Shown: piece by piece, positions 2,661-54,558 of the stretch
Layout: each line of letters begins with the position of its first letter
How positions within the stretch are numbered: position 1 is the first letter of the stretch
Assembly (NCBI GenBank): GCA_003518055.1
Contig: DOZJ01000002.1
Coordinates: forward strand, 378,304 to 440,362
Reading direction: 5' to 3'
DNA: 62,059 nucleotides
Source: Candidatus Falkowbacteria bacterium
GTDB lineage: Bacteria > Patescibacteriota > Patescibacteriia > UBA11705
The notes under the pieces: generated by a model
What the model saw: only the letters and a program-made list of their open reading frames with translations
What the model was told of the DNA's origin: nothing
The model's database searches: none
Program-made: the position numbers and the translations under genes

Positions 2661-2989
2661 CCTGCCTCCACCGGTGGTTGTCAACGTTCTGGTTTTTATC
2701 TTAGGTCGTTATTCCAAAATGTCAATCCACGAACAAGATAGCGTCAAGAAGTTTGAAATTCAAACCTATATTATCAATGGTAACGGAGAGTCTTTGCGGC
2801 CTTTCTTACCTGTGCATGAATCTTATCTATGCCTCTTGACATCGTGTAAAATATACACTATGATAATCGTGTAAGAGTTCCTTACAATTTGTCTGTAGAA
2901 ATGAAGCGTGAGTGTTTAGCGATATTTTGAGATAAAAATATCTTATTTAAGCGTAATTAGGCGATTTTCTTCTAAACTCTGGCAAAATA

Positions 2990-3018
2990 TTGACATTTTC
3001 TCATAAATATGATAAGTT
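2990..3018 (+). promoter_or_regulatory. Sigma70-like promoter for the 3136-7894 operon
   Basis: TTGACA (2990-2995), 17-nt spacer, TAAGTT (3013-3018). A second candidate, TTGACA-17-TATGAT, lies at 2836-2864. Confidence 0.45.
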
Positions 3019-3135
3019 TTTATGTTAAATTTCCTTTAGAATTGATATTGAATTCAGAGGAAATTTTATGTCGTTTGACAACTCACAGTTTATAAGAAAA
3101 ACTCAAACACTCCACACCGATAGAGGGAAAGGATC

Positions 3136-5213: not shown

Positions 5214-6599
5214 ATGACCCGAAAGGTTTATGTGGTCACCGACCTCGGTCCGGGGGATGGTGGCAAGGGCGGAGTCGTTCACAAGATCGCTTCGATGCTG
5301 AAAGCGTTTCTGATTATCAAAGTGGGAGGCGCCCAAGGCAGCCATGGTGTCCGCACTTCGCGAGGTGAAAGCTTTGCGTTCAGTCAGTGGGGCTGTGGCA
5401 CGTTCGAGGGCATTCCGACTCACTTGTCACCTCGATTTATCGTTTCAATTGAAGGATTGTTGAATGAGGCCGAAGCCTTGCGCTATGGCCATGGCGTTCA
5501 CGATCCATTCAGTCTGCTGACGGTTGATCATCTGGCGCTCTGCTCAATTCCGTACCACGGTATTTCCTCGCGGCTAAAAGAATTGGCGCGCGGAAAAAAT
5601 CCGAGAGGTACGATTGGTACGGGAGTCGGCGAAGCTTTTCGCTATGCCCAAAGCCATCCGGAATTAAGTTTGAGAGTCAACGATTTGGCCCGGCCTGATA
5701 TGCGTGAGTTTCTGGCCGCAGTCCGCGATCAGATTACTCACGATCTCGAGCCAGTCATTCAGAGTGGATTTTTTGAAGAAGATGATCCGTTTGTCGAAGA
5801 AAATGTTCAGAAATTATTTGATGATGAGTTCCTGGATTTCATTACCGCTCGGGCCTATGCCTTGGCGCGAAATCTACAGGTAGTGGATCGCGATTATTTA
5901 CGGCAAATGTTCCTGCGTACTAATCGCCCGGCTGTAGTTGAAAGTTCACATGGAGTTCTGACTGATCACTACTGCGGTTTTGAACCGCATACTAGTGCCA
6001 TTCGGACTCTTCCAATGTTCGCGCATTCTATGCTTCGAGACGCTGATTTTGATGGTCAAATTGTCAATATCGGCGTGCATCGCGCATATGAAATCCGCCA
6101 CGGCGCTGGACCAATGCCAACGGCTGATGACGCCATGGGTGAAACTCTTTTGCCCGGCAGTCATAAAGAAGAAAACCGCTGGCAGGGAAAAGTTCGCGTC
6201 GGTCCGCTCGATTTGGTGCTCATGCGCTACGCGATAGCGTGCTGCGGGGGTCCCAAAGCTTTTGACGGACTGGCGATTACTTGGTTTGATCAGGTCCATG
6301 AAAATGGTGACTGGCAAATTTGTGATCATTACAAAAACGCGAAAGACAGAGAGTTTTTCACCCCTGATGGCGAGCTCAAAGTCAGTGTTGGCGACAACAT
6401 TGAACGGCTCATTTATCAGGAAGGTCTTGGGCAACAGCTTCAAGGTTGTATTCCCGAGATCAGTTCGATCCCTGTTCCCTTGAACGCGAACCGCGACGAG
6501 CTCTTCGAGCTCTGCGCCCGCGTTCTGCAGGAAAGACTTTCCGTCCCGGTGAGAATGGTCTCGCTGGGACCGACCGAAACCGACAAGGTCTGCAAGTAA
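5214..6599 (+). CDS. Divergent adenylosuccinate synthetase (PurA/AdSS)-family protein (461 aa)
   Basis: ORF track (5208). ATG at 5214 follows GAGGGAGG. Serial PurA motif matches: DLGPGDGGKGG vs GDEGKGK; GGAQGSHGV vs GGHNAGHT; RGTIGTGVGEAF vs TTGRGIGPAY; VESSHGVLTD...PHTSA vs LEGAQGTLLD...PFVTSS; HGAGPMPT vs GAGPFPTE. Confidence 0.7.
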   Translation: MTRKVYVVTDLGPGDGGKGGVVHKIASMLKAFLIIKVGGAQGSHGVRTSRGESFAFSQWGCGTFEGIPTHLSPRFIVSIEGLLNEAEALRYGHGVHDPFSLLTVDHLALCSIPYHGISSRLKELARGKNPRGTIGTGVGEAFRYAQSHPELSLRVNDLARPDMREFLAAVRDQITHDLEPVIQSGFFEEDDPFVEENVQKLFDDEFLDFITARAYALARNLQVVDRDYLRQMFLRTNRPAVVESSHGVLTDHYCGFEPHTSAIRTLPMFAHSMLRDADFDGQIVNIGVHRAYEIRHGAGPMPTADDAMGETLLPGSHKEENRWQGKVRVGPLDLVLMRYAIACCGGPKAFDGLAITWFDQVHENGDWQICDHYKNAKDREFFTPDGELKVSVGDNIERLIYQEGLGQQLQGCIPEISSIPVPLNANRDELFELCARVLQERLSVPVRMVSLGPTETDKVCK

Positions 6600-6622
6600 C
6601 CCCACAGCACAGGAAGAAGCCA

Positions 6623-7894
6623 ATGACAGATGTGAAAGTTCCCGTGACTCCCGTGTCTCCGACCGCTACTCCGACTCCTGCTTCGTCTCCCGAACCCGTG
6701 GTCGCTCCGCTGCCCGTCGTCGACGAGCTCATCGCACGGCTGAACACGCTCGGCGTCGACCCCGACACGATCAGCAAGATCAAGTCCGAGCTCGGTGCCT
6801 CCAGCCTCGACGACTTGCCGAACCTGACCGAGGAAGATCTCCTCAAGGTCGGCATGAAGGCGCTCCCTGCAAGGAAGCTGGTCCTGGCGCTGAAGCCGGC
6901 AGTCCCGACGGCGGTCGAAGTCGGATCCATGATGGGATCCAGTTCGGCCGATCTCGTCAACCTGCTGGCACCAGTTCCTGAGAGCCGCTCCATGCTCGAC
7001 GGCCTCAGCCTCGTCCAGATCGGGAAGATCGAGCGGACGGTCGTGTCGAACGGCATTCGCGCCGCTCTCGCGAGTCGTGCCGGCCTCTTCGATGTGCCGG
7101 CCTATCTGCTCGAGCTCATGAACGACTTCGTCACCAACCGCATGGAAGAGCCTGCGCCGCAGTCCTACTACGATCTGGAAGACGAGGTTGCGAAGCAGGA
7201 CAACGCCGAGGTTCTGCGCCTGCTCAAGGTCAGCGGTCGCTACACGACGAAGGAACGCAAGCATGAGTTCCTCGGTCGGATCGGTCGCCTCTGGCAGCCG
7301 GCCAAGACCTTCCAGGAGCAGCTCCAGGCCTGGTACGAGGCCTATCTCAAGGTCGCCGGCAGTCCCGCGGCCATGATGGCGGCGATGACAAGCCTCGCTG
7401 GTGGGGGCCGATCCGTTCTGCCGGTCGTCACCTCGACGCCCGACACCTCGCCTCTGCACGACGGTGCTCAGCTCGTGATCCAGTCGATCAATGCAGCATT
7501 CGCCGGACGGAACATCCCCGCGGCCATGGCGCTGGCCTTCGATGCCGAACGCATCAACGCGTTCCTCACGAGCGCGGACGTCATCCGCTATACAGGTTCG
7601 GTCAATCGCGAGGAGCTCGCACGTACGCTGGGCAAGCGGCTCGGCAGTACGCTGGTGACTCCCGACTACCGTCGGCTCGAGAACGTGCTCGTTCAGTTCG
7701 TACTGAGCGTGTACGAGATCGACGCTCGCGCACCGCTCGGTACGCCCCAGGAGCTGCAGTACATCATGGCGCTGTACATGCTCGGCCAGAACATCCCGTG
7801 GGATCGCCTTTTCGATGGCGTGACCAACGAGGGAGGCAGGGCCAGCAACAAGCTCACCGGCATCGGCGGCCGGGGCAAGCGCGACGACCTCTAG
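6623..7894 (+). CDS. Very G+C-rich hypothetical protein with P/T-rich N-terminus and SAM (sterile-alpha-motif)-like segment (423 aa)
   Basis: ORF track frame 6446..7894. I start at ATG 6623, preceded by AGGAAG. Third codon positions are almost all G/C. NLTEEDLLKVGMKALPARKLVLALK resembles the SAM-domain C-terminal consensus. The antisense 488-aa ORF is judged a shadow. Confidence 0.6.
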   Translation: MTDVKVPVTPVSPTATPTPASSPEPVVAPLPVVDELIARLNTLGVDPDTISKIKSELGASSLDDLPNLTEEDLLKVGMKALPARKLVLALKPAVPTAVEVGSMMGSSSADLVNLLAPVPESRSMLDGLSLVQIGKIERTVVSNGIRAALASRAGLFDVPAYLLELMNDFVTNRMEEPAPQSYYDLEDEVAKQDNAEVLRLLKVSGRYTTKERKHEFLGRIGRLWQPAKTFQEQLQAWYEAYLKVAGSPAAMMAAMTSLAGGGRSVLPVVTSTPDTSPLHDGAQLVIQSINAAFAGRNIPAAMALAFDAERINAFLTSADVIRYTGSVNREELARTLGKRLGSTLVTPDYRRLENVLVQFVLSVYEIDARAPLGTPQELQYIMALYMLGQNIPWDRLFDGVTNEGGRASNKLTGIGGRGKRDDL

Positions 7895-7934
7895 TCGTGA
7901 CTCCAAGTTCTTTTTCTGAATAAGTTATAATTTT

Positions 7935-7966
7935 CCGAGTAATTAATAGTTACTCGGTTTTTTTTT
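7935..7966 (+). terminator. Strong intrinsic terminator ending the 3136-7894 operon
   Basis: CCGAGTAA (7935-7942) pairs with TTACTCGG (7950-7957), followed by nine Ts. Confidence 0.8.
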
Positions 7967-7969
7967 GGA

Positions 7970-8079
7970 GATACGAATTACAAATTGGTACAAATAATAC
8001 AAAATTCGCTTGAGAACTATATGTGCGATAGTTATCTGCAATATTTGTAATATTAGTATAAGATTTGTAAATTTGTATC
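7970..8079. repeat. AT-rich nested palindrome (right boundary element of the island)
   Basis: GATACGAATTACAAATT ... AATTTGTAAATTTGTATC, with multiple TACAAAT/ATTTGTA heptamers. Outer arms are near-identical to those at 1380-1460. Confidence 0.65.
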
Positions 8080-23549: not shown

Positions 23550-24722
23550 TTACCAGAAAAGCACATCACAGACAACCGCAAAGGCCAGCGCATCGTAGAA
23601 CGGATCGTATGGATAGTAATAACCGTATGGCTCATATCCATAATACCCATAGTTATAAAATGGATCATACGCATCATTCGAATCATCTTCGTATGTTTCA
23701 GTGTCAGTGTGAGTATTCACAGTACCTTCTTCGAGACTATAATTCACTTCCGCGCCGCAGCCGGGACAGTTCGAACTGCCATTGGGAATCCGGCTGTGAC
23801 ACTTCGGGCACTCGCCGTAGGTTTCCTCCGGCCCGGTTTCAACTTGTTCCCAGTTGAGACGCTTGCCGCAGATTGGGCAATTCTCAAAATGATCAACGCC
23901 GGCATTCATCAGCAGCACCGCGAGAGCCGCCTCGCAATGCTCACATTCGGTACCTTCACGCCGAGCATGTTCCAGCATGCCGGAGGCATAGATAGTAGCC
24001 GCGATCGAGTCTGATTCCTCATCCGAGTTTCCGAGGTCTGTCCACTTGTATGAGGTGTCAACAATCCGGTCAATCTCGTCAAAGAAGGTTCCGAGCTGGA
24101 GGTCAAACCAGAATTGCTCAGTATCGAACTTGCCATCAGCCAGCTTCTGGACAAAGACAACCACTCGGGGGTCAAAGTCAGCGGGCAGCTTTGAAGACGT
24201 CTTGTGGGCAAACCAGCTCATCATCGCTAGGCGCAGATCCTCAACCCCAAGTTCTTCGCGCTCTCGTGAATCAAGGATTTCGTCTGCCGGAAATCTCCAC
24301 GTATCGTACACATGATCAAGTACTTGGAATGAACCATCATCCTTGAGCATATCTACATGGACTTGAGCCGCCAAAGCCACCTGCCAAAACATATTAAAGT
24401 GCAGGGAAGCGTCAAACGCTCCAAGCAGCTTGCCAATCAACTCCCGGCCTGCATCGGTCACTTCATAGAACAGCGGGTCCGGATCTCTCGGTGTTGGAGT
24501 CTTCTTCTTGAACCAAGACAGTCTTGGCTTTTCGGCTTCCGGCTCCGGGGACTCTGCGTTTCTCACATTGATAAATCCGTGAACGTGCATCTCGCCGATG
24601 TCAGCTTCCATGAATCGCAGATCTTCATCCTCAATCAGCACCGGAATTCGAAGCCCACGCTCTTCCATGTAATACAGCAGGGTAATGATTCTCAGTTTCT
24701 GACGCCAGTCCAATTCTTTCAT
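23550..24722 (-). CDS. Hypothetical protein with Cys4 zinc-ribbon pairs and Tyr-rich C-terminal tail (390 aa)
   Basis: ORF track. GGGAGGG SD. CEHCEA...CPICG and CPKCH...CPGCG. The tail is YDPFYNYGYYGYEPYGYYYPYDPFY followed by a hydrophobic end. Confidence 0.65.
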   Translation of the reverse strand: MKELDWRQKLRIITLLYYMEERGLRIPVLIEDEDLRFMEADIGEMHVHGFINVRNAESPEPEAEKPRLSWFKKKTPTPRDPDPLFYEVTDAGRELIGKLLGAFDASLHFNMFWQVALAAQVHVDMLKDDGSFQVLDHVYDTWRFPADEILDSREREELGVEDLRLAMMSWFAHKTSSKLPADFDPRVVVFVQKLADGKFDTEQFWFDLQLGTFFDEIDRIVDTSYKWTDLGNSDEESDSIAATIYASGMLEHARREGTECEHCEAALAVLLMNAGVDHFENCPICGKRLNWEQVETGPEETYGECPKCHSRIPNGSSNCPGCGAEVNYSLEEGTVNTHTDTETYEDDSNDAYDPFYNYGYYGYEPYGYYYPYDPFYDALAFAVVCDVLFW

Positions 24723-24836
24723 TGGCCCTCCCGCCTGTCACTGTGACAGGATTCTGGTGGTATTTCTGTTTTGCAGTTCTCTGAGTTTAAAAAGAAGTGC
24801 CGGTTGACACTTCAGATTTTAGTTCGAATTAAGAGT

Positions 24837-25907
24837 TTAACGACGCCGACCGCCGCCTGAGCTGCGGAATCCGCCGCCGCTGCTCCTGCGGGCGCCTCCG
24901 CCGCCCCAGCCGCTGCTTCTCGGCGCTGCCGGTCTGGTCGCAGCCGGCCTGGTGCCGCCGCCGCTCGGGGTTGTATGCCAGCCGGGCTTGGCCGGAGGTG
25001 TCCGTCCAGCCGGTGCCGCTTCGGGCTGCTTGGTGGCGCCAGCGCCGAATCCCGTCGCCTTGCGCTTGGTCTGGTTCGGGTCGCGCGCCTGATAGTCGCG
25101 GGTCGTTCCGGCTCGTCCGGCTACGCCCTGCCCCGGCTTGTTATACTGGGTTGACTTGGCGTACTTGCTCGGCTTCTCTGCCGACTTGATGACCTTCGAG
25201 GTCGGTCGAGTCGTCTTGGAGATCGGCGACACCTGTGTCTTGGTGATCTGCCGACTCGATCGGAACGAATCTCGACGTGAGCTGAGCGCCGGACCGGCAA
25301 AGACCGGTCGCGGCGAGTAGAAGCCCGTCCGATACATCGGTACGTAGTATGGCCGCGGCGAGAACATGTAGCCGAGCAGTAGTCCGGTGGCAAAGCCACT
25401 GCCATGATGGTAGGCCATGGGGTAACTATAATAATAATCATTGTAGCCGTGGACGTGCTGACTGTAGCCGCCAGAGATCACGACCTGATTCGTGGTCGTA
25501 TTCCGCTCGAACTCTACCTGACCGATGGTGACTCCGTCTTCCTCCTTGCCGGTGGATGATGGAATGGCCACGAGGTCGACCAGCCGCTTGATGTCGTTCG
25601 ACTCTGGCAGCTCGCGGAAGACGACATAGTCGATCTTCCCATCCTGATCGATATCGACATTGTTGATTCCGGATTCGCCGTTGACCAGCGTCTCCATCTC
25701 TTCGATGCTCGCGACCTTGTTCTCGCGAATCATGGTCATAAGCGTCTCGAGATCGAAATCATCGGTCTTGACCGAGCCGGTGGTCTCCGTTTCAGTCTGG
25801 GTATACGTCTGATGGCTCGAGTGGGTACTTCGGCCGCAGCCGGCCCCGATAAAGATCATCAGGCTGAGAATAGCAAAAATAGGCAGAAAAACCCTCGGAT
25901 AGCGCAT
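24837..25907 (-). CDS. G+C-rich lipoprotein with DxDxDG Ca-binding-like loop, Tyr-rich segment and R/G/P-rich tail (356 aa)
   Basis: ORF track. AAGGAGG SD. Lipobox-like IGAGC. NNVDIDQDGKIDY. The C-terminus ends ...GGGGARRSSGGGFRSSGGGRRR. Confidence 0.65.
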   Translation of the reverse strand: MRYPRVFLPIFAILSLMIFIGAGCGRSTHSSHQTYTQTETETTGSVKTDDFDLETLMTMIRENKVASIEEMETLVNGESGINNVDIDQDGKIDYVVFRELPESNDIKRLVDLVAIPSSTGKEEDGVTIGQVEFERNTTTNQVVISGGYSQHVHGYNDYYYSYPMAYHHGSGFATGLLLGYMFSPRPYYVPMYRTGFYSPRPVFAGPALSSRRDSFRSSRQITKTQVSPISKTTRPTSKVIKSAEKPSKYAKSTQYNKPGQGVAGRAGTTRDYQARDPNQTKRKATGFGAGATKQPEAAPAGRTPPAKPGWHTTPSGGGTRPAATRPAAPRSSGWGGGGARRSSGGGFRSSGGGRRR

Positions 25908-26113
25908 GTTGCCTCCTTGGTTGGGGTTGCGCTGTTGGTTGTCAAAGCACTAAATTACTCGCCATTTTAACACGCTCGATTAAATCTGTCAAGTTTTGGC
26001 TAATTATATGTTTTTATCAGCTTGACAAAGGTATTTATTTATAGTAAGTTTCTTCGAAGATCATTTACATATAAAACAAGGCAAATTTACACCAAACTCC
26101 AAGTCAACAGGAG

Positions 26114-50116: not shown

Positions 50117-51289
50117 ATGAAAATAGTCATCATCAATAACTTGTTTAAACCGTATAATATTGGCGGAGCGGAAAAAATCGTTGAACTCCAGGCGACTGCT
50201 TGGTCATCGGCGCATGACGTGACGATAATTACAACCAGTCCATTTAAAGGCATCAGTAGCCTTAAATTATCGGCTGATGAGACAGAAACCTATGCCTATA
50301 AAATTCTGCGTTTTTTCCCTTTAAATTTGTATCACTATTTGGACGGTCATGATTTTTTTTGGTTTGCCCGGCTGATTTGGAATTTTTTTGATGTGTTTAA
50401 TCTGCATTCATATTTGGTGATTCGTCAAAAACTGGCTGAAATTAAACCGGACATGGTCGTGTTTCACAATTTAAAAGGTATCGGTTATTTGCTTGGCCTT
50501 TTATCACGGAAATATCGTTGTGTTATGATTCTTCATGATGTGCAGTACGCCATTCCGAGCGGCTTACTCCTGAAATCTGAGGAAACAAAAAATTCAGAGT
50601 TGAATGGATTGTATTGTGACATCAATCGGCATTTGTTTTCCGGCGTCCAAAAGGTGATTGCCCCTTCGCAGTGGCTCTTGAATTTTTATCGTGACAAAGG
50701 TCTGTTTTCTTTGGCTAAAACGTATAAAGTTCCGAATCCGATTACCGGTCATGGAAGTTTTTCCGGATCGCGGACGCTGCATCAACCGCTGAAATTACTT
50801 TTTGTTGGCCAGATTGAAGATCACAAAGGCTTGGATTGGGCGTCAAATAATCTGGGATCAGAAATTGAGCTGGATATTGTCGGCTCGGGCAGTCAATTAC
50901 AAAATCTAAGGGACAAATATCCCTCAAAACCGTCTATTCGTTTTCACGGCCGGCTGGATAATCCAAACTTGACTCAGTTCTATCAGCAGGCAGACTATTT
51001 GCTGGTCCCATCGAGGTGCTATGAAAATTATCCAACCGTGATTCTGGAAGCCTTTGCTCATGGTTTGCCGGTTATTGGCGTGAGCCATGGTGGGGTGCCG
51101 GAATTAGTCGAAGAAGAAAAAACCGGGTTTTTATTCGAATCCGGTGTGGGTGACTCTTTGGTTAAAGCGGTTCAAAAAGCTCGATCTTGGGCAGATTATG
51201 AATCTCTCCGAACCGCCTGTCACCAGCGGGTGCAGCCCCAATCGGCTGAAAATTATGAAAAAACACTCTTAAGAATCGCACTTGAATAA
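50117..51289 (+). CDS. GT4-family glycosyltransferase
   Basis: PSRCYENYPTVILEAFAHGLPVIGVSHGGVPELV. Confidence 0.8.
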   Translation: MKIVIINNLFKPYNIGGAEKIVELQATAWSSAHDVTIITTSPFKGISSLKLSADETETYAYKILRFFPLNLYHYLDGHDFFWFARLIWNFFDVFNLHSYLVIRQKLAEIKPDMVVFHNLKGIGYLLGLLSRKYRCVMILHDVQYAIPSGLLLKSEETKNSELNGLYCDINRHLFSGVQKVIAPSQWLLNFYRDKGLFSLAKTYKVPNPITGHGSFSGSRTLHQPLKLLFVGQIEDHKGLDWASNNLGSEIELDIVGSGSQLQNLRDKYPSKPSIRFHGRLDNPNLTQFYQQADYLLVPSRCYENYPTVILEAFAHGLPVIGVSHGGVPELVEEEKTGFLFESGVGDSLVKAVQKARSWADYESLRTACHQRVQPQSAENYEKTLLRIALE

Positions 51290-51486
51290 ATATTGTTTTT
51301 TTGCTATGATTTCATTAGCTTTAATTTTACAAGCTAAGTATTATTACCGCTTATTTCTTGGGTTCAACTTTTCTTGCTAGCAAGAAATATGCGAGACAGA
51401 TGTTCGTTTATAGAATTTATGCACCATGGCGCGTGTCCTTTGGCAGAGAATTTATTGATTTGTTATTTATTATTTGTTTTCCCTAT

Positions 51487-51556
51487 GGGGGGTTCGTATA
51501 GTGGTAGTACAGCGGTCTCCATCCCGCCGTTCGCGAACGGCGGGATCCAAAACCGT
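51487..51556 (+). pseudogene. tRNA-Trp 5' fragment (positions 1 to about 43) carrying a 28-nt insertion (26-nt palindrome plus CC) inside the anticodon
   Basis: GGGGGGTTCGTATAGTGGTAGTACAGCGGTCTCC is identical to the intact gene. This is followed by ATCCCGCCGTTCGCGAACGGCGGGAT (a perfect 26-nt palindrome, 51521-51546) plus CC, then AAAACCGT, after which similarity ends. Confidence 0.7.
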
Positions 51557-51571
51557 CATTAAATCAAATGT

Positions 51572-51823
51572 ATGAAACTTTATTACGTATATTTATTGAG
51601 GGATCAAAATAAAAAGATTTATATTGGATACACAGAAAATTTAGAGCGGCGTTTTTGTGAACATTCTGCGAAGAAAGTTTATTACACAAAAAGATTGAAT
51701 AACCCGCAAATTTATTATTTTGAAGCTTATGTAGATGAAATTATGGCCAAAGAACGAGAGAGAAAATTGAAACAATATGGCTCGGCTTACATGGGTCTGA
51801 TGAAGAGAATTGGGTTGAAATAA
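51572..51823 (+). CDS. GIY-YIG nuclease-superfamily protein (83 aa)
   Basis: YYVYLLRDQNKKIYIGYTENLERRFCEH matches the GIY-(10-11 aa)-YIG plus R motif. Confidence 0.75.
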   Translation: MKLYYVYLLRDQNKKIYIGYTENLERRFCEHSAKKVYYTKRLNNPQIYYFEAYVDEIMAKERERKLKQYGSAYMGLMKRIGLK

Positions 51824-51837
51824 AATATTTATGGCAG

Positions 51838-51911
51838 GGGGGGTTCGTATAGTGGTAGTACAGCGGTCTCCAAAACCGTTAGCGAGGGTTCAATTCCTTC
51901 ACCCCCTGCCA
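51838..51911 (+). tRNA. tRNA-Trp(CCA): tRNA-Trp (anticodon CCA at 51870-51872), CCA end encoded
   Basis: Manual cloverleaf: acceptor GGGGGGT/ACCCCCT (G1-U72), D-arm GTAT-AGTGGTA-GTAC, anticodon arm GCGGT-CTCCAAA-ACCGT, T-arm GAGGG-TTCAATT-CCTTC. Confidence 0.8.
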
Positions 51912-51937
51912 TAAACATTTTATCCGAAAAGTAAAAA

Positions 51938-52026
51938 TAGGTTAGTACGGCGGGATCCATCCCGCCGTTCGCGAACGGCTGGATCCAAAACCGTTAGCGA
52001 GGGTTCAATTCCTTCACCCCCTGCCA
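51938..52026 (+). pseudogene. tRNA-Trp 3' fragment (D-arm remnant to CCA) carrying the same palindromic insertion
   Basis: ATAGGTTAGTACGGCGGGATCC, then ATCCCGCCGTTCGCGAACGGCTGGAT (51959-51984, one mismatch) plus CC, then AAAACCGTTAGCGAGGGTTCAATTCCTTCACCCCCTGCCA, which is identical to the intact 3' half. Confidence 0.7.
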
Positions 52027-52157
52027 GAAAAATTGTTTCTGAGTAAGAAAAAACACTTTGCTTTAAGGGTGTTTTTTTGATTGACAGTTTCACTTATTTA
52101 AGTTAAATTGACATATAAGTTCTTTACATTTAACTCAGCTAGCGAAAAGGCAGAAAC

Positions 52158-52404: not shown

Positions 52405-54558
52405 ATGAGTTCAAAAATTGTTGTTGATGAGATTATGCCCGGTTGCAAAGTGGCCAAAGTGGGTGGCACGGAGGTTATGTTCGGCTGTCCGTCTGAAGTG
52501 TTGAAGCTATTCAGCCGTCAGTCGAGGCAAATGCCCAAGATCATCGTCCTGCCGGATGAGTTTTATCGCTTTGGCGTGATTCAGGCGGCTTTGGAATTTG
52601 TGTTGTACGATTTCTTGTTTGTTCAGGGCCGGTTTTTCGCCGGCGAAAAATTGACAATCGTAAGCACTGAGGAGCAAGTTAACCGGATGGAAGAAATTTT
52701 GGAGTTGACGCTTCTCGGTCCGTCTCGCTGGCAGATGGAGCTTTGGGATATTCCGCCTGACATTATCGAGGATACGGTGAATTTGTCTCATCATTTCGCT
52801 CTCAAGCATCCGGGAACCGATCGGGTGGCGGCCATTGCCGATATGATAAATTTTGTGGCTTTCAACCATGATTTCGCAGAGCCTGATGGTCAAAATATTT
52901 TTATTGGCCACGGTGGCGCGAATATTTTTTCCGTCTCCGATGGTGTCAACAGTGATCGCGTTGATATCAATCTGCATGAAATGCAGGCGCCGCCGATTGA
53001 CATTCCTGTGCCTTTGACTTTGACGCCTCACGCGGTTTTCGGCGCGACGGCTATTAGTCAGTGTACTACCGGTTTTGATCCCAATGGCTACACTTCAGGA
53101 ATTTTGATTCACGTCAACGGCCTGATTATCTCCGCCGATGGTGTGGCTTGGATGAAGCCGCATTTGCAGAATCTGGGGATTAACCCCGCGGAAATTTCCG
53201 CTCATATTATCACGCACATTCATGATGATCACAGCAATATCTTTGACTTGATCGTCAACGGTGAAAAATTTCATCTTTTGGCGGACAAACTGGTTTATCA
53301 CTGCGTCGTGCGCAAAGCGGCGCTGCTACTCAATCTGTCAGAGGATAAAGTCGCTTCGTTTATCCACTGGATTGAATATAAATTAAATAAACCCCTAGAG
53401 TGGTATGGCGCGGTGTTTGAATTCTGGCCCACGGCGCATCCGATTCCGACCCGAGGCTTCAAAGTGACGGTCAGCGGCCATTCGATTATTTACAGCGGCG
53501 ATACGTGTTGGGGGTCTCAGCTCGCGGTCTTGGTTGGTAAAGGCGTGATCAGGGCGGATTTTGCTCAAAAGCTAAACGACGTGCCCAATCAAGACGCTGA
53601 TGTGATTTTTCATGATGCCGGCGGCGGTTTTGTTCATCCCTTGATTCATGAGTTGGCTGCTCTGCCGCCGCAGATTCGCCGTCATATTGTTCCCACTCAC
53701 TTGCCCAAACTGCCCCATGATTTGGTTGGTGTGTTTGAGCTGATTCATACTGGTCAAAACTGGATTTTGCTTCCTCAGAAAAGCTATGAGACCAGCACGT
53801 TTACTCAAATTCGTCGCGCGCCTTTGCTCGTCACTCTGAGCCCTGAATGGCGCAGTGTGATGTTGTCTCAGGGCACGGTTCAAGAATATCCTCCGGGTTA
53901 CATGTTGCTCAGGGAAGGTACTCCGGGTAAAAATTTTTATCTGCTTTTGGGCGGGACGGTTCAAGTATTGCAGGCAAACGAACAGGTGGCTTTGCTGTCA
54001 ACCGGTGATTTCTTTGGCGAGATTTCCTTGATGAGTGGTAGTGTCTGCAACGCTTCGATCATAACCAGAAGCCCGGTCAAAGTACTCGAATTGCCGCGGC
54101 ATATTTTTTTGGCCATGGTTCAAGCTACGGGTTTGGCGGCCAAGCTGGAAAAAATCCACAAAGTCCGTCCGATTTACATGCAGTTCTCATTGATGAAAAA
54201 TTTGCCAGCGGCGGTTCAAAACCGGTTGTTTGAAGTGACAAATATGGAGACTTGGTTGGCGGGTACGGTCATCATTCGTGAGGGTGATGTCGGTGATAAA
54301 GTTTATGGTATCATTGGCGGCCATGCTGAAGTGATTCATCTGGATCTATTGGGAGTAAGGCATAAACTGGCTGATTTGCATCCGGGGCAGATTTTTGGCG
54401 AGATGGCTTTCTTTGGTGATGGCCATCGCACGGCCGATGTGGCGGCGGTGACTGATATGACCGGTTTTTCCATTGATCGGGTCAGTTTTGAAGAAATCAT
54501 TGAAAACGTTCCGATGTTGAAATATGGTCTGGGTAAGCTGGCTGAGAGCCGCAAGTAG
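52405..54558 (+). CDS. Multidomain protein: unknown N-terminal domain, metallo-beta-lactamase-fold hydrolase, and two cyclic-nucleotide-binding domains (717 aa)
   Basis: AAGGAGGA SD. HIITHIHDDHSN (HxHxDH), later AHPIP / SGDT / FHDAGGG. Two CAP_ED-like segments (GDFFGEISLM...ASIIT and GQIFGEMAFFGDGHRTADVAA). Confidence 0.75.
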   Translation: MSSKIVVDEIMPGCKVAKVGGTEVMFGCPSEVLKLFSRQSRQMPKIIVLPDEFYRFGVIQAALEFVLYDFLFVQGRFFAGEKLTIVSTEEQVNRMEEILELTLLGPSRWQMELWDIPPDIIEDTVNLSHHFALKHPGTDRVAAIADMINFVAFNHDFAEPDGQNIFIGHGGANIFSVSDGVNSDRVDINLHEMQAPPIDIPVPLTLTPHAVFGATAISQCTTGFDPNGYTSGILIHVNGLIISADGVAWMKPHLQNLGINPAEISAHIITHIHDDHSNIFDLIVNGEKFHLLADKLVYHCVVRKAALLLNLSEDKVASFIHWIEYKLNKPLEWYGAVFEFWPTAHPIPTRGFKVTVSGHSIIYSGDTCWGSQLAVLVGKGVIRADFAQKLNDVPNQDADVIFHDAGGGFVHPLIHELAALPPQIRRHIVPTHLPKLPHDLVGVFELIHTGQNWILLPQKSYETSTFTQIRRAPLLVTLSPEWRSVMLSQGTVQEYPPGYMLLREGTPGKNFYLLLGGTVQVLQANEQVALLSTGDFFGEISLMSGSVCNASIITRSPVKVLELPRHIFLAMVQATGLAAKLEKIHKVRPIYMQFSLMKNLPAAVQNRLFEVTNMETWLAGTVIIREGDVGDKVYGIIGGHAEVIHLDLLGVRHKLADLHPGQIFGEMAFFGDGHRTADVAAVTDMTGFSIDRVSFEEIIENVPMLKYGLGKLAESRK

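Follow-up and report, generated by a model that had tools for sequence, protein, structure and literature searches.

A GIY-YIG nuclease gene recurs beside one intact tRNA-Trp gene and palindrome-disrupted tRNA-Trp pieces in Patescibacteria

The tRNA-Trp locus described here lies in a stretch of 62,059 nucleotides from Candidatus Falkowbacteria (contig DOZJ01000002.1, positions 378,304 to 440,362 of the forward strand), which we call the window. Within a cassette of 0.54 kb, whose sole open reading frame (ORF) encodes a small GIY-YIG nuclease, one intact tRNA-Trp gene is accompanied by two palindrome-bearing partial copies, an upstream fragment (a) and a downstream fragment (c) (Table 1). The original prediction for this DNA had put both fragments, the ORF and the intact gene where we find them, and its palindrome and repeats were verified. 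Repeat comparison identified 51487-51521 as the first 35 nt of the intact tRNA-Trp (tRNA positions 1-36), a piece that neither ARAGORN nor Rfam calls as a tRNA. In fragment (a), CCAAAACCGT comes after the 26-nt palindrome and tRNA homology stops at 51556. Fragment (c), spanning 51938-52026, carries the palindrome with one mismatch at 51959-51984 in the same 26-nt frame.

Table 1. Features of the tRNA-Trp cassette and its borders in the window.
Feature	Position	Strand	Remarks
Promoter-like TTGAAT-17-TATGAT (TG-extended)	51282..51310	+	directly 3' of glycosyltransferase gene
Pseudo-tRNA-Trp 5' part (fragment (a))	51487..51521	+	100% identical to 51838-51872; ends in left TCCA (51518-51521)
24-nt perfect palindrome TCCCGCCGTTCGCGAACGGCGGGA	51522..51545	no strand	26 nt (51521-51546) counting flanking A and T
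Second TCCA plus AAACCGT (tRNA positions 33-43)	51546..51556	+	duplicated target, anticodon-stem 3' strand
GIY-YIG nuclease gene	51572..51823	+	83 amino acids, catalytic domain alone; starts 15 nt past end of tRNA homology
Intact tRNA-Trp (CCA)	51838..51911	+	ARAGORN call; Rfam 61 bits; CCA end encoded
Start of fragment (c)	51940..51959	+	D-arm remnant GGTTAGT, truncated right arm of first palindrome (ACGGCGGGA), TCCA
Second palindrome copy	51960..51983	no strand	one change, G to T at 51980
TCCA plus tRNA-Trp positions 37-76 including CCA	51984..52026	+	43-nt direct repeat of 51869-51911
A-run, short hairpin and T-run after final tRNA copy	52047..52078	+	aligns with terminator 3' of plain tRNA-Trp in L148

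The tetranucleotide TCCA (tRNA positions 33-36) borders the 24-nt core on either side, as TCCA-TCCCGCCGTTCGCGAACGGCGGGA-TCCA, and because of this the exact insertion position is ambiguous. An insertion between the second and third anticodon nucleotides had been proposed; the palindrome is indeed there, and only the precise position has to be given up. Similarly, fragment (c) had been described as an anticodon-stem remnant followed by a palindrome with one change and a perfect 3' half. The latter two descriptions hold. For the remnant another reading fits better: in 51947-51959 (ACGGCGGGATCCA), 13 of 13 positions agree with the right palindrome arm followed by TCCA, as opposed to 10 of 13 for the anticodon stem, and (c) therefore appears to have once carried two tandem palindromes, as locus L156 does today. 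The window holds only two copies of the palindrome, both inside the cassette, compared with none in 100 shuffles. In the predicted fold, the palindrome forms an 11-bp hairpin stacked on the anticodon stem. The cassette contains no tyrosine or serine recombinase gene, and a Pfam search gave no match to a transposase family. An Rfam scan at E values up to 1 matched just the intact tRNA and no intron family, indicating that no intron or known small RNA is present. The promoter-like site upstream would drive the cassette. The hairpin and T-run after the last copy, missed by a consensus terminator scan, are tentatively the likely terminator of the resident tRNA, judging from the alignment.

The nuclease matches the Pfam GIY-YIG family PF01541 with an E value of 2e-11 (44.5 bits; cut-off 22.6). 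Residues Y5, V6, Y7, Y17, I18, G19, R27, H31, R62 and E63 are invariant in 13 sequences, and dN/dS among relatives is 0.1-0.3. The AlphaFold2 (AF2) model has a predicted local distance difference test score (pLDDT) of 93.7 and the beta-beta-alpha-beta-alpha-alpha topology of the GIY-YIG fold. By profile and fold, the solved structures closest to it are those of the UPF0213 proteins BH0048 and EF2693 and of the Slx1 nuclease domain; Foldseek matched the model to 1ZG2 and to Slx1 in 7CQ3 (template modeling (TM) score 0.70, root-mean-square deviation 1.9 Å). The conserved catalytic residues, the dN/dS values and the confident model suggest that the nuclease is functional. The minimal GIY-YIG proteins of UPF0213 or Slx1 type (PDB 1ZG2, 1YWL, 7CQ3) are thus its closest counterparts. 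Slx1 is a structure-specific nuclease, in keeping with a hairpin or cruciform substrate. Unlike the window protein, however, Slx1 partners Slx4 and has an additional zinc-finger domain, and the bacterial UPF0213 proteins are widespread and have no assigned function.

The exact nuclease protein is present on eight groundwater metagenome contigs, and the locus is carried by four independent assemblies made with different assemblers and k values. The full arrangement occurs in L001 and L004. L002 and L003 lack fragment (c) through a 115-nt deletion between 43-nt direct repeats, an allele that arises because these repeats mediate recombination. Unitigs of sequencing run X1 cover every junction, including the entry into (c), and run X3 has the (c)-deleted form. 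Thus, the population consists of two alleles, with and without fragment (c).

Comparison with relatives identified the site without the cassette. Loci L148 and L149 are syntenic with the window, sharing the glycosyltransferase genes and a gene for a 717-amino-acid protein (72% identical), and hold just a plain tRNA-Trp and its terminator in a spacer of 484 nt. This is the empty site, so that the cassette is present or absent at one and the same place in related genomes. Homology between the window and L148 resumes directly after the last tRNA copy. Upstream of the plain tRNA-Trp in L148 stands TTGAAT-17-TATTAT, in the same place as the TTGAAT-17-TATGAT of the window. A comparison of orthologous loci had been recommended as a check, and L148 and L149 supply the empty site.

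The tRNA gene within the cassette also differs from that of the relative. The intact tRNA-Trp of the window is 72% identical to that of the syntenic relative and shares 89% identity with its counterpart in L008, the locus that also encodes the closest homologue of the window nuclease; on these comparisons the window tRNA-Trp looks foreign. Additionally, the pseudo and intact tRNA copies clearly differ in L008, L015 and L156, which indicates a mosaic origin. Together, the identities and the mosaic copies suggest that the tRNA sequence was exchanged along with the element. As to which copy is resident and which imported, the evidence from sequence comparison is mixed between loci.

We considered 12 close loci that encode nuclease homologues at 50% identity or more. 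In 11 of the 12 an intact tRNA-Trp begins 1-65 nt past the ORF stop, and the flanking genes of these 11 are unrelated to one another, so that these 11 close homologues sit at a single target gene in different neighborhoods. The same 11 loci have a partial tRNA-Trp with one to three palindromes of the same family upstream, except for L156, in which the palindromes lie in the downstream fragment. The twelfth locus, L155, has its ORF between inverted arms in an intergenic position and lacks the tRNA-Trp architecture. The cassette comprises a GIY-YIG gene of about 80 codons, one intact tRNA-Trp and partial tRNA-Trp copies into which a GC-rich palindrome of 24 nt has been placed. Its hosts are Parcubacteria, Uhrbacteria, Magasanikiibacteriota and other Patescibacteria metagenome-assembled genomes (MAGs), as well as one MAG (L014) labeled Gammaproteobacteria. 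A protein-profile scan of viral contigs found no cassette, arguing that the element is not phage-borne. Downstream of the cassette tRNA-Trp in L012 (2605-3031) are several repeats containing CTGCCAG, perhaps pieces of tRNA 3' ends, and a second, different GIY-YIG ORF of 93 amino acids (2750-3031).

A second set of loci (L028-L147) came from a metagenome scan for the palindrome motif YCCMGCCNNTCGCGANNGGCKGGR, with more than 120 matches listed; among these are at least eight further loci of cassette type. Their gene orders vary. L035 reads pseudo-tRNA, tRNA, ORF, pseudo-tRNA, and so includes the mirror order (tRNA, ORF, pseudo-tRNA). L045 reads pseudo-tRNA, ORF, tRNA and two pseudo-tRNAs, and L097 has the ORF, the tRNA and a pseudo-tRNA of the window (c) type. 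L102 (pseudo-tRNA, ORF, tRNA) and its close relative L099 (tRNA, ORF remnant, pseudo-tRNA) lie between the same tRNA-Arg and tRNA-Met genes; the ORF of L099 is internally deleted and has thus decayed. L146 is a solo pseudo-tRNA on a 3.3-kb contig without an intact tRNA-Trp. Every cassette other than this relic is accompanied by an intact gene, and each ORF-bearing locus has exactly one intact copy, all other copies having a palindrome at or adjoining the anticodon loop. Upstream of its ORF, L097 looks far more GC-rich than in its cassette and downstream flank; the contig may be chimeric, or its host may not be a bacterium of the Candidate Phyla Radiation (CPR).

The disrupted copies fall into two classes. 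In the first the palindrome is inserted at the TCCA of the anticodon loop, and in the second it replaces tRNA positions 38-57 (CTCCAA-palindrome-CGATTCC), with identical junctions in eight loci. Palindrome-bearing pieces flank the ORF and tRNA on both sides in L035 and L045, and also in the Bacteroidota loci L157 and L158 described below. This fits the proposal of one disrupted tRNA with (a) and (c) as its two sides. One-sided loci can arise by repeat-mediated deletion, which is polymorphic in the window population.

Several observations indicate that the palindrome behaves as a discrete insertion. The arrangement TCCA-palindrome-TCCA was found in 10 anticodon copies. In L013 a palindrome sits in the D-loop between two copies of TGAA; this locus has three palindromes in all, and its relative L015 has one. 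L156 carries the tandem palindrome-TCCA-palindrome-TCCA with two different palindrome variants. Within cassettes, the flanks are TCCA, TGAA, TGA and ACA (4 nt at the anticodon, 3-4 nt elsewhere). Among the motif matches listed, 9 of 79 perfect palindromes at non-cassette sites are flanked by 4-nt direct repeats, five of them TTGA or TCAA (permutation mean 0.8, maximum 5 in 2000), and 27 of the 79 sit within longer inverted repeats (permutation mean 4.3). The two arms show strong covariation, with 96% of cells paired and 6 of 12 pairs altered on both sides, a level attained by 0 of 500 shuffles. Both L017 copies show a symmetrical change of the two central bases, for which a hairpin offers no pairing, a weak indication of symmetry at the level of DNA. 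A terminator role for the cassette palindromes was rejected, as they are not followed by a T-run on either strand. Canonical transposition is not claimed; the duplications vary in length (3-4 nt) and none surrounds the ORF units.

The motif YCCMGCCNNTCGCGANNGGCKGGR as such is found in metagenomes far above chance, with more than 120 copies among the matches listed. Direct repeats of 4 nt flank some copies, frequently TTGA in TTGACA-like contexts; about one third lie at the center of longer, locus-specific inverted repeats, and others resemble bidirectional terminators. L017 contains another perfect 26-nt palindrome, GCCACGTCGGTCGCGACCGACGTGGC (around 2328-2353), with a TCGCGA center and different arms, which overlaps the CCA end of the intact tRNA-Trp.

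More distant homologues, at 40-53% identity, lie in 16S rRNA (L019, L023) and 23S rRNA (L021, L022, L025, L026), beside the RNase P RNA at its 5' end (L020) and between genes (L024, L155). Nine homologue units of 287-313 bp have perfect terminal inverted repeats (TIRs) of 9-21 bp, eight of which start CCC[A/C]GC (L024: CCAGC). The ORF lies between the arms CCCMGCMC... and ...GKGCKGGG, the same motif as in the outer palindrome arms, and the palindrome corresponds to two abutted arms of these inverted repeats. Because the unit ends share this motif, the solo palindrome looks like an ORF-less form of the unit. In rRNA, copies of the unit replace helix tips. In L020, the unit at 1966-2266, with arms CCCCGCACATAACATTACT, directly adjoins the RNase P RNA gene at its 5' end, and the Rfam match starts inside its right arm.

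The same architecture occurs at tRNA-Met in Bacteroidota (Chitinophagaceae), in L027 (Lacibacter; 1757-2345), L157 (1040-1590) and L158 (990-1960). In these loci homologous ORFs sit after an intact tRNA-Met, and tRNA-Met fragments follow and sometimes precede them. A hairpin with arms TCCGCCC/GGGCGGA replaces the positions past 37 in the fragments. L158 has two ORF-plus-fragment units in tandem.

On balance we favor, as somewhat the more probable account, that the locus is a tRNA-Trp-specific lineage of a family of hairpin-associated selfish GIY-YIG elements. This account draws on what the sequences show: a recurrent architecture, an empty site, tRNAs of mosaic composition, decayed ORFs, trimming through repeats and duplicated targets at palindromes. 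Because the same design is found in many other bacteria, the element resembles a genetic parasite that moves among tRNA genes. It occupies the resident tRNA-Trp locus with its ORF, one intact tRNA-Trp and hairpin-bearing partial copies, and would spread between genomes by recombination, probably stimulated when the nuclease breaks a naive tRNA-Trp gene close to its anticodon arm. Homology on both flanks may come from the tRNA sequence itself, in which case one working gene and one displaced piece would always be left, and the working tRNA could be exchanged during spread. The palindrome would disable the displaced piece and interrupt the repeat, making it hard for recombination to bring back a gene free of the element. 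Transcription of the cassette probably starts at the promoter of the resident tRNA. Turnover is visible directly: recombination between tRNA repeats trims one side, as in the loss of (c), and ORFs decay with time. In outline, this agrees with the first of the originally proposed readings, a GIY-YIG homing-type element that carries its own tRNA, in that the module recurs, an empty site exists, the tRNA looks foreign and the ORF decays elsewhere. The palindrome might also be a target-site-immunising insertion, as had been suggested. In terms of known classes, the locus would be a freestanding homing-type nuclease gene with partial target duplication, possibly together with a new miniature palindromic element.

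A number of points weigh against the selfish-element account. The 83-amino-acid protein has no DNA-binding domain by Pfam or in the AF2 model, making the long-target recognition typical of homing endonucleases unlikely; recognition of a structure, such as a hairpin, cruciform or loop, would therefore be more plausible than recognition of a long sequence. The role assigned to the nuclease rests on a predicted activity and a presumed cleavage site, and its link to palindrome insertion is one of association. The intact tRNA retains the anticodon-loop sequence of the presumed target, and its immunity is unaccounted for. Additionally, the pseudo-fragments of the window match the intact gene and not the tRNA of the relative, so that a resident or imported origin cannot be read from them. 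Lastly, none of the RNA runs contains the locus, and three metatranscriptomes of the same study give zero coverage.

A wider claim, possible but in our view doubtful, is that the GIY-YIG protein of about 80 amino acids and the 24-bp palindrome constitute a new kind of mobile DNA system, in which a structure-specific nuclease would place hairpin units, either carrying the ORF or lacking it, into short T..A sites, duplicating 3-4 bp and preferring loops of stable-RNA genes. The tRNA lineages would then be addiction cassettes, in which the palindrome knocks out the resident tRNA and the element supplies its own copy, so that the host cannot lose them. Such a system would be at work in at least two phyla and at two tRNA identities.

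Quite unlikely, to our mind, is an explanation at the level of RNA, in which the hairpins are processing or stabilizing signals for nuclease mRNA made from stable-RNA promoters, similar to RNase III removal of rRNA intervening sequences. The hairpins would then spread independently of the nuclease, and the pseudo-tRNAs would be by-products of ORF insertion. The arms of the rRNA copies would indeed pair, leaving the insert protruding from a helix tip, the Bacteroidota hairpin loops are non-palindromic, the window hairpin is predicted to stack on the anticodon stem, and the resident promoter is conserved upstream. However, palindromes are flanked by target duplications and exist as tandem insertions, they occupy several positions within one pseudogene (L013), the central bases of L017 changed symmetrically where a hairpin loop needs no pairing, and in Bacteroidota a terminator stands between the tRNA and the ORF. 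We give little credence to vertical synteny, whereby a housekeeping UPF0213-type gene would sit beside tRNA-Trp in part of the CPR, and the fragments would be decayed tandem duplicates with unrelated REP-like hairpins (REP, repetitive extragenic palindromic). The breadth of the UPF0213 proteins and their unassigned function would allow this, as would the many sites of the palindrome motif far from any cassette. Yet the syntenic relative has an empty site, and the close relatives L099 and L102 have both gene orders at one locus, with one ORF decayed. Moreover, homologues within rRNA genes are discrete TIR-bounded units, the tRNA sequences are mosaic, and the window has no palindrome outside the cassette.

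Integration of a circle bearing the ORF and a partial tRNA, by a single Campbell-type crossover that duplicates the homologous segment, would directly yield both observed orders (pseudo 5' part, ORF, tRNA; and tRNA, ORF, pseudo 3' part), with the nuclease accessory or merely stimulating. This is also improbable: the cassette has no recombinase gene, no circular junction was seen in the unitigs, and the palindromes are left unexplained. The two remaining readings of the original prediction on splicing, a large nuclease-encoding intron between (a) and (c) or a spliced mini-intron of 28 nt, would account for two palindrome-bearing pieces that jointly span the whole tRNA, but we consider either very unlikely. 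The large intron is not supported, as alleles (L002 and L003, without (c)) and relatives lack one or the other fragment. As for the mini-intron, the window fragments are truncated and lack half of the tRNA, and most relatives have a single fragment, often truncated or with positions 38-57 replaced; no ribozyme or bulge-helix-bulge motif was found, nor any intron family in the permissive Rfam scan, and an intact gene stands in each cassette except L146. Short repeats in metagenomic data could, lastly, make the triplication an assembly artefact of a single tRNA-Trp gene, a concern already raised when the locus was first described. With four independent assemblies in agreement, unitigs crossing all junctions and the architecture shared by unrelated organisms, the chance of this is negligible.

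GIY-YIG-encoding insertions in CPR rRNA genes were reportedly first noted by Brown et al. in 2015. They involve the same protein family as the window (40-47% identical homologues in 16S and 23S rRNA) and the same group of organisms. The ORFs in these insertions have been classed outside both group I and group II introns (Tsurumaki et al. 2024, PMC11270868); when the text of PMC11270868 was searched, inverted-repeat arms, palindromes and tRNA genes were not found to be mentioned. Unlike these insertions, the window ORF lies outside the hairpin, beside a tRNA gene and with duplicated gene pieces, and this copy is at a tRNA gene and not within 16S or 23S rRNA. The T-even phage gene segB, in the T4 tRNA gene cluster, is likewise a freestanding GIY-YIG gene adjoining tRNA genes, and Seg endonucleases spread by break repair with co-conversion of flanking sequence (PMC2330249). 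In contrast, Seg proteins exceed the window protein more than twofold in length and include DNA-binding domains, their loci have no pseudo-tRNA duplicates or palindromes, and they work during phage co-infection, whereas the window element is in a bacterial chromosome.

In the Allomyces atp6 gene, a GIY-YIG mobile ORF is said to bring a replacement gene end and to leave the displaced end as a pseudogene (attributed to Paquin et al., 1994). As proposed for the window, the endonuclease gene moves together with a portion of the gene it targets, which stays functional with the displaced fragment adjacent; the fungal system differs in its protein-coding targets, its lack of a palindromic insertion and its location in an organelle. 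Collaborative homing is reported for T4 mobA and the gene 60 bypass cassette (Bonocora et al., 2011; Zeng et al., 2009). There, too, a short insertion interrupts the target of a neighboring freestanding endonuclease and moves alongside it, but the interrupted gene works through ribosomal bypass or splicing; that of the window cannot, and a separate intact copy is kept. A related preprint also exists (10.1101/2022.08.31.505936). Lastly, pairs of REP sequences and REP-associated tyrosine transposases (RAYTs), as well as miniature inverted-repeat transposable elements (MITEs), resemble the cassette in that short GC-rich palindromic repeats flank a dedicated nuclease gene, with apparent target duplication for some copies. 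Here the enzyme is a GIY-YIG nuclease and not a Y1 or DDE transposase, the repeat is a perfect palindrome of 24 nt, and the 62-kb window has two cassette copies and none outside the cassette. We found no description of the tRNA cassette or its palindrome in the open-licence papers searched. The statement that the arrangement lacks precedent therefore holds for these two, and has to be qualified by the published CPR rRNA GIY-YIG ORFs and by the analogies in fungal mitochondria and T4.

If the selfish-element account is correct, selfish nuclease genes can colonize an essential single-copy tRNA gene without an intron, the working copy being carried or regenerated and the leftover disabled by a dedicated hairpin. 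This would tie the unexplained GIY-YIG insertions of CPR rRNA to a defined element that ends in inverted repeats and has a miniature form lacking the ORF, and would give the large, uncharacterized UPF0213-type family a testable role. It would also suggest that bacteria with reduced genomes replace tRNA genes horizontally. In practice, tRNA annotation and the assembly of metagenomic bins can be led astray by pseudo-tRNA pieces and palindromes of this type. Cultivable hosts for tests of the mechanism are available in the Bacteroidota branch.

Elsewhere in the window, two stretches (6001-8000 and 24001-26000) have a GC content of 0.55-0.59, compared with about 0.43 elsewhere; Rfam found no rRNA in either, and the first has long ORFs that overlap on both strands. 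The 717-amino-acid protein encoded at 52405-54558 has a metallo-beta-lactamase-like domain (Pfam: Anti-Pycsar Apyc1) and two cyclic-nucleotide-binding domains, and is kept across Patescibacteria.

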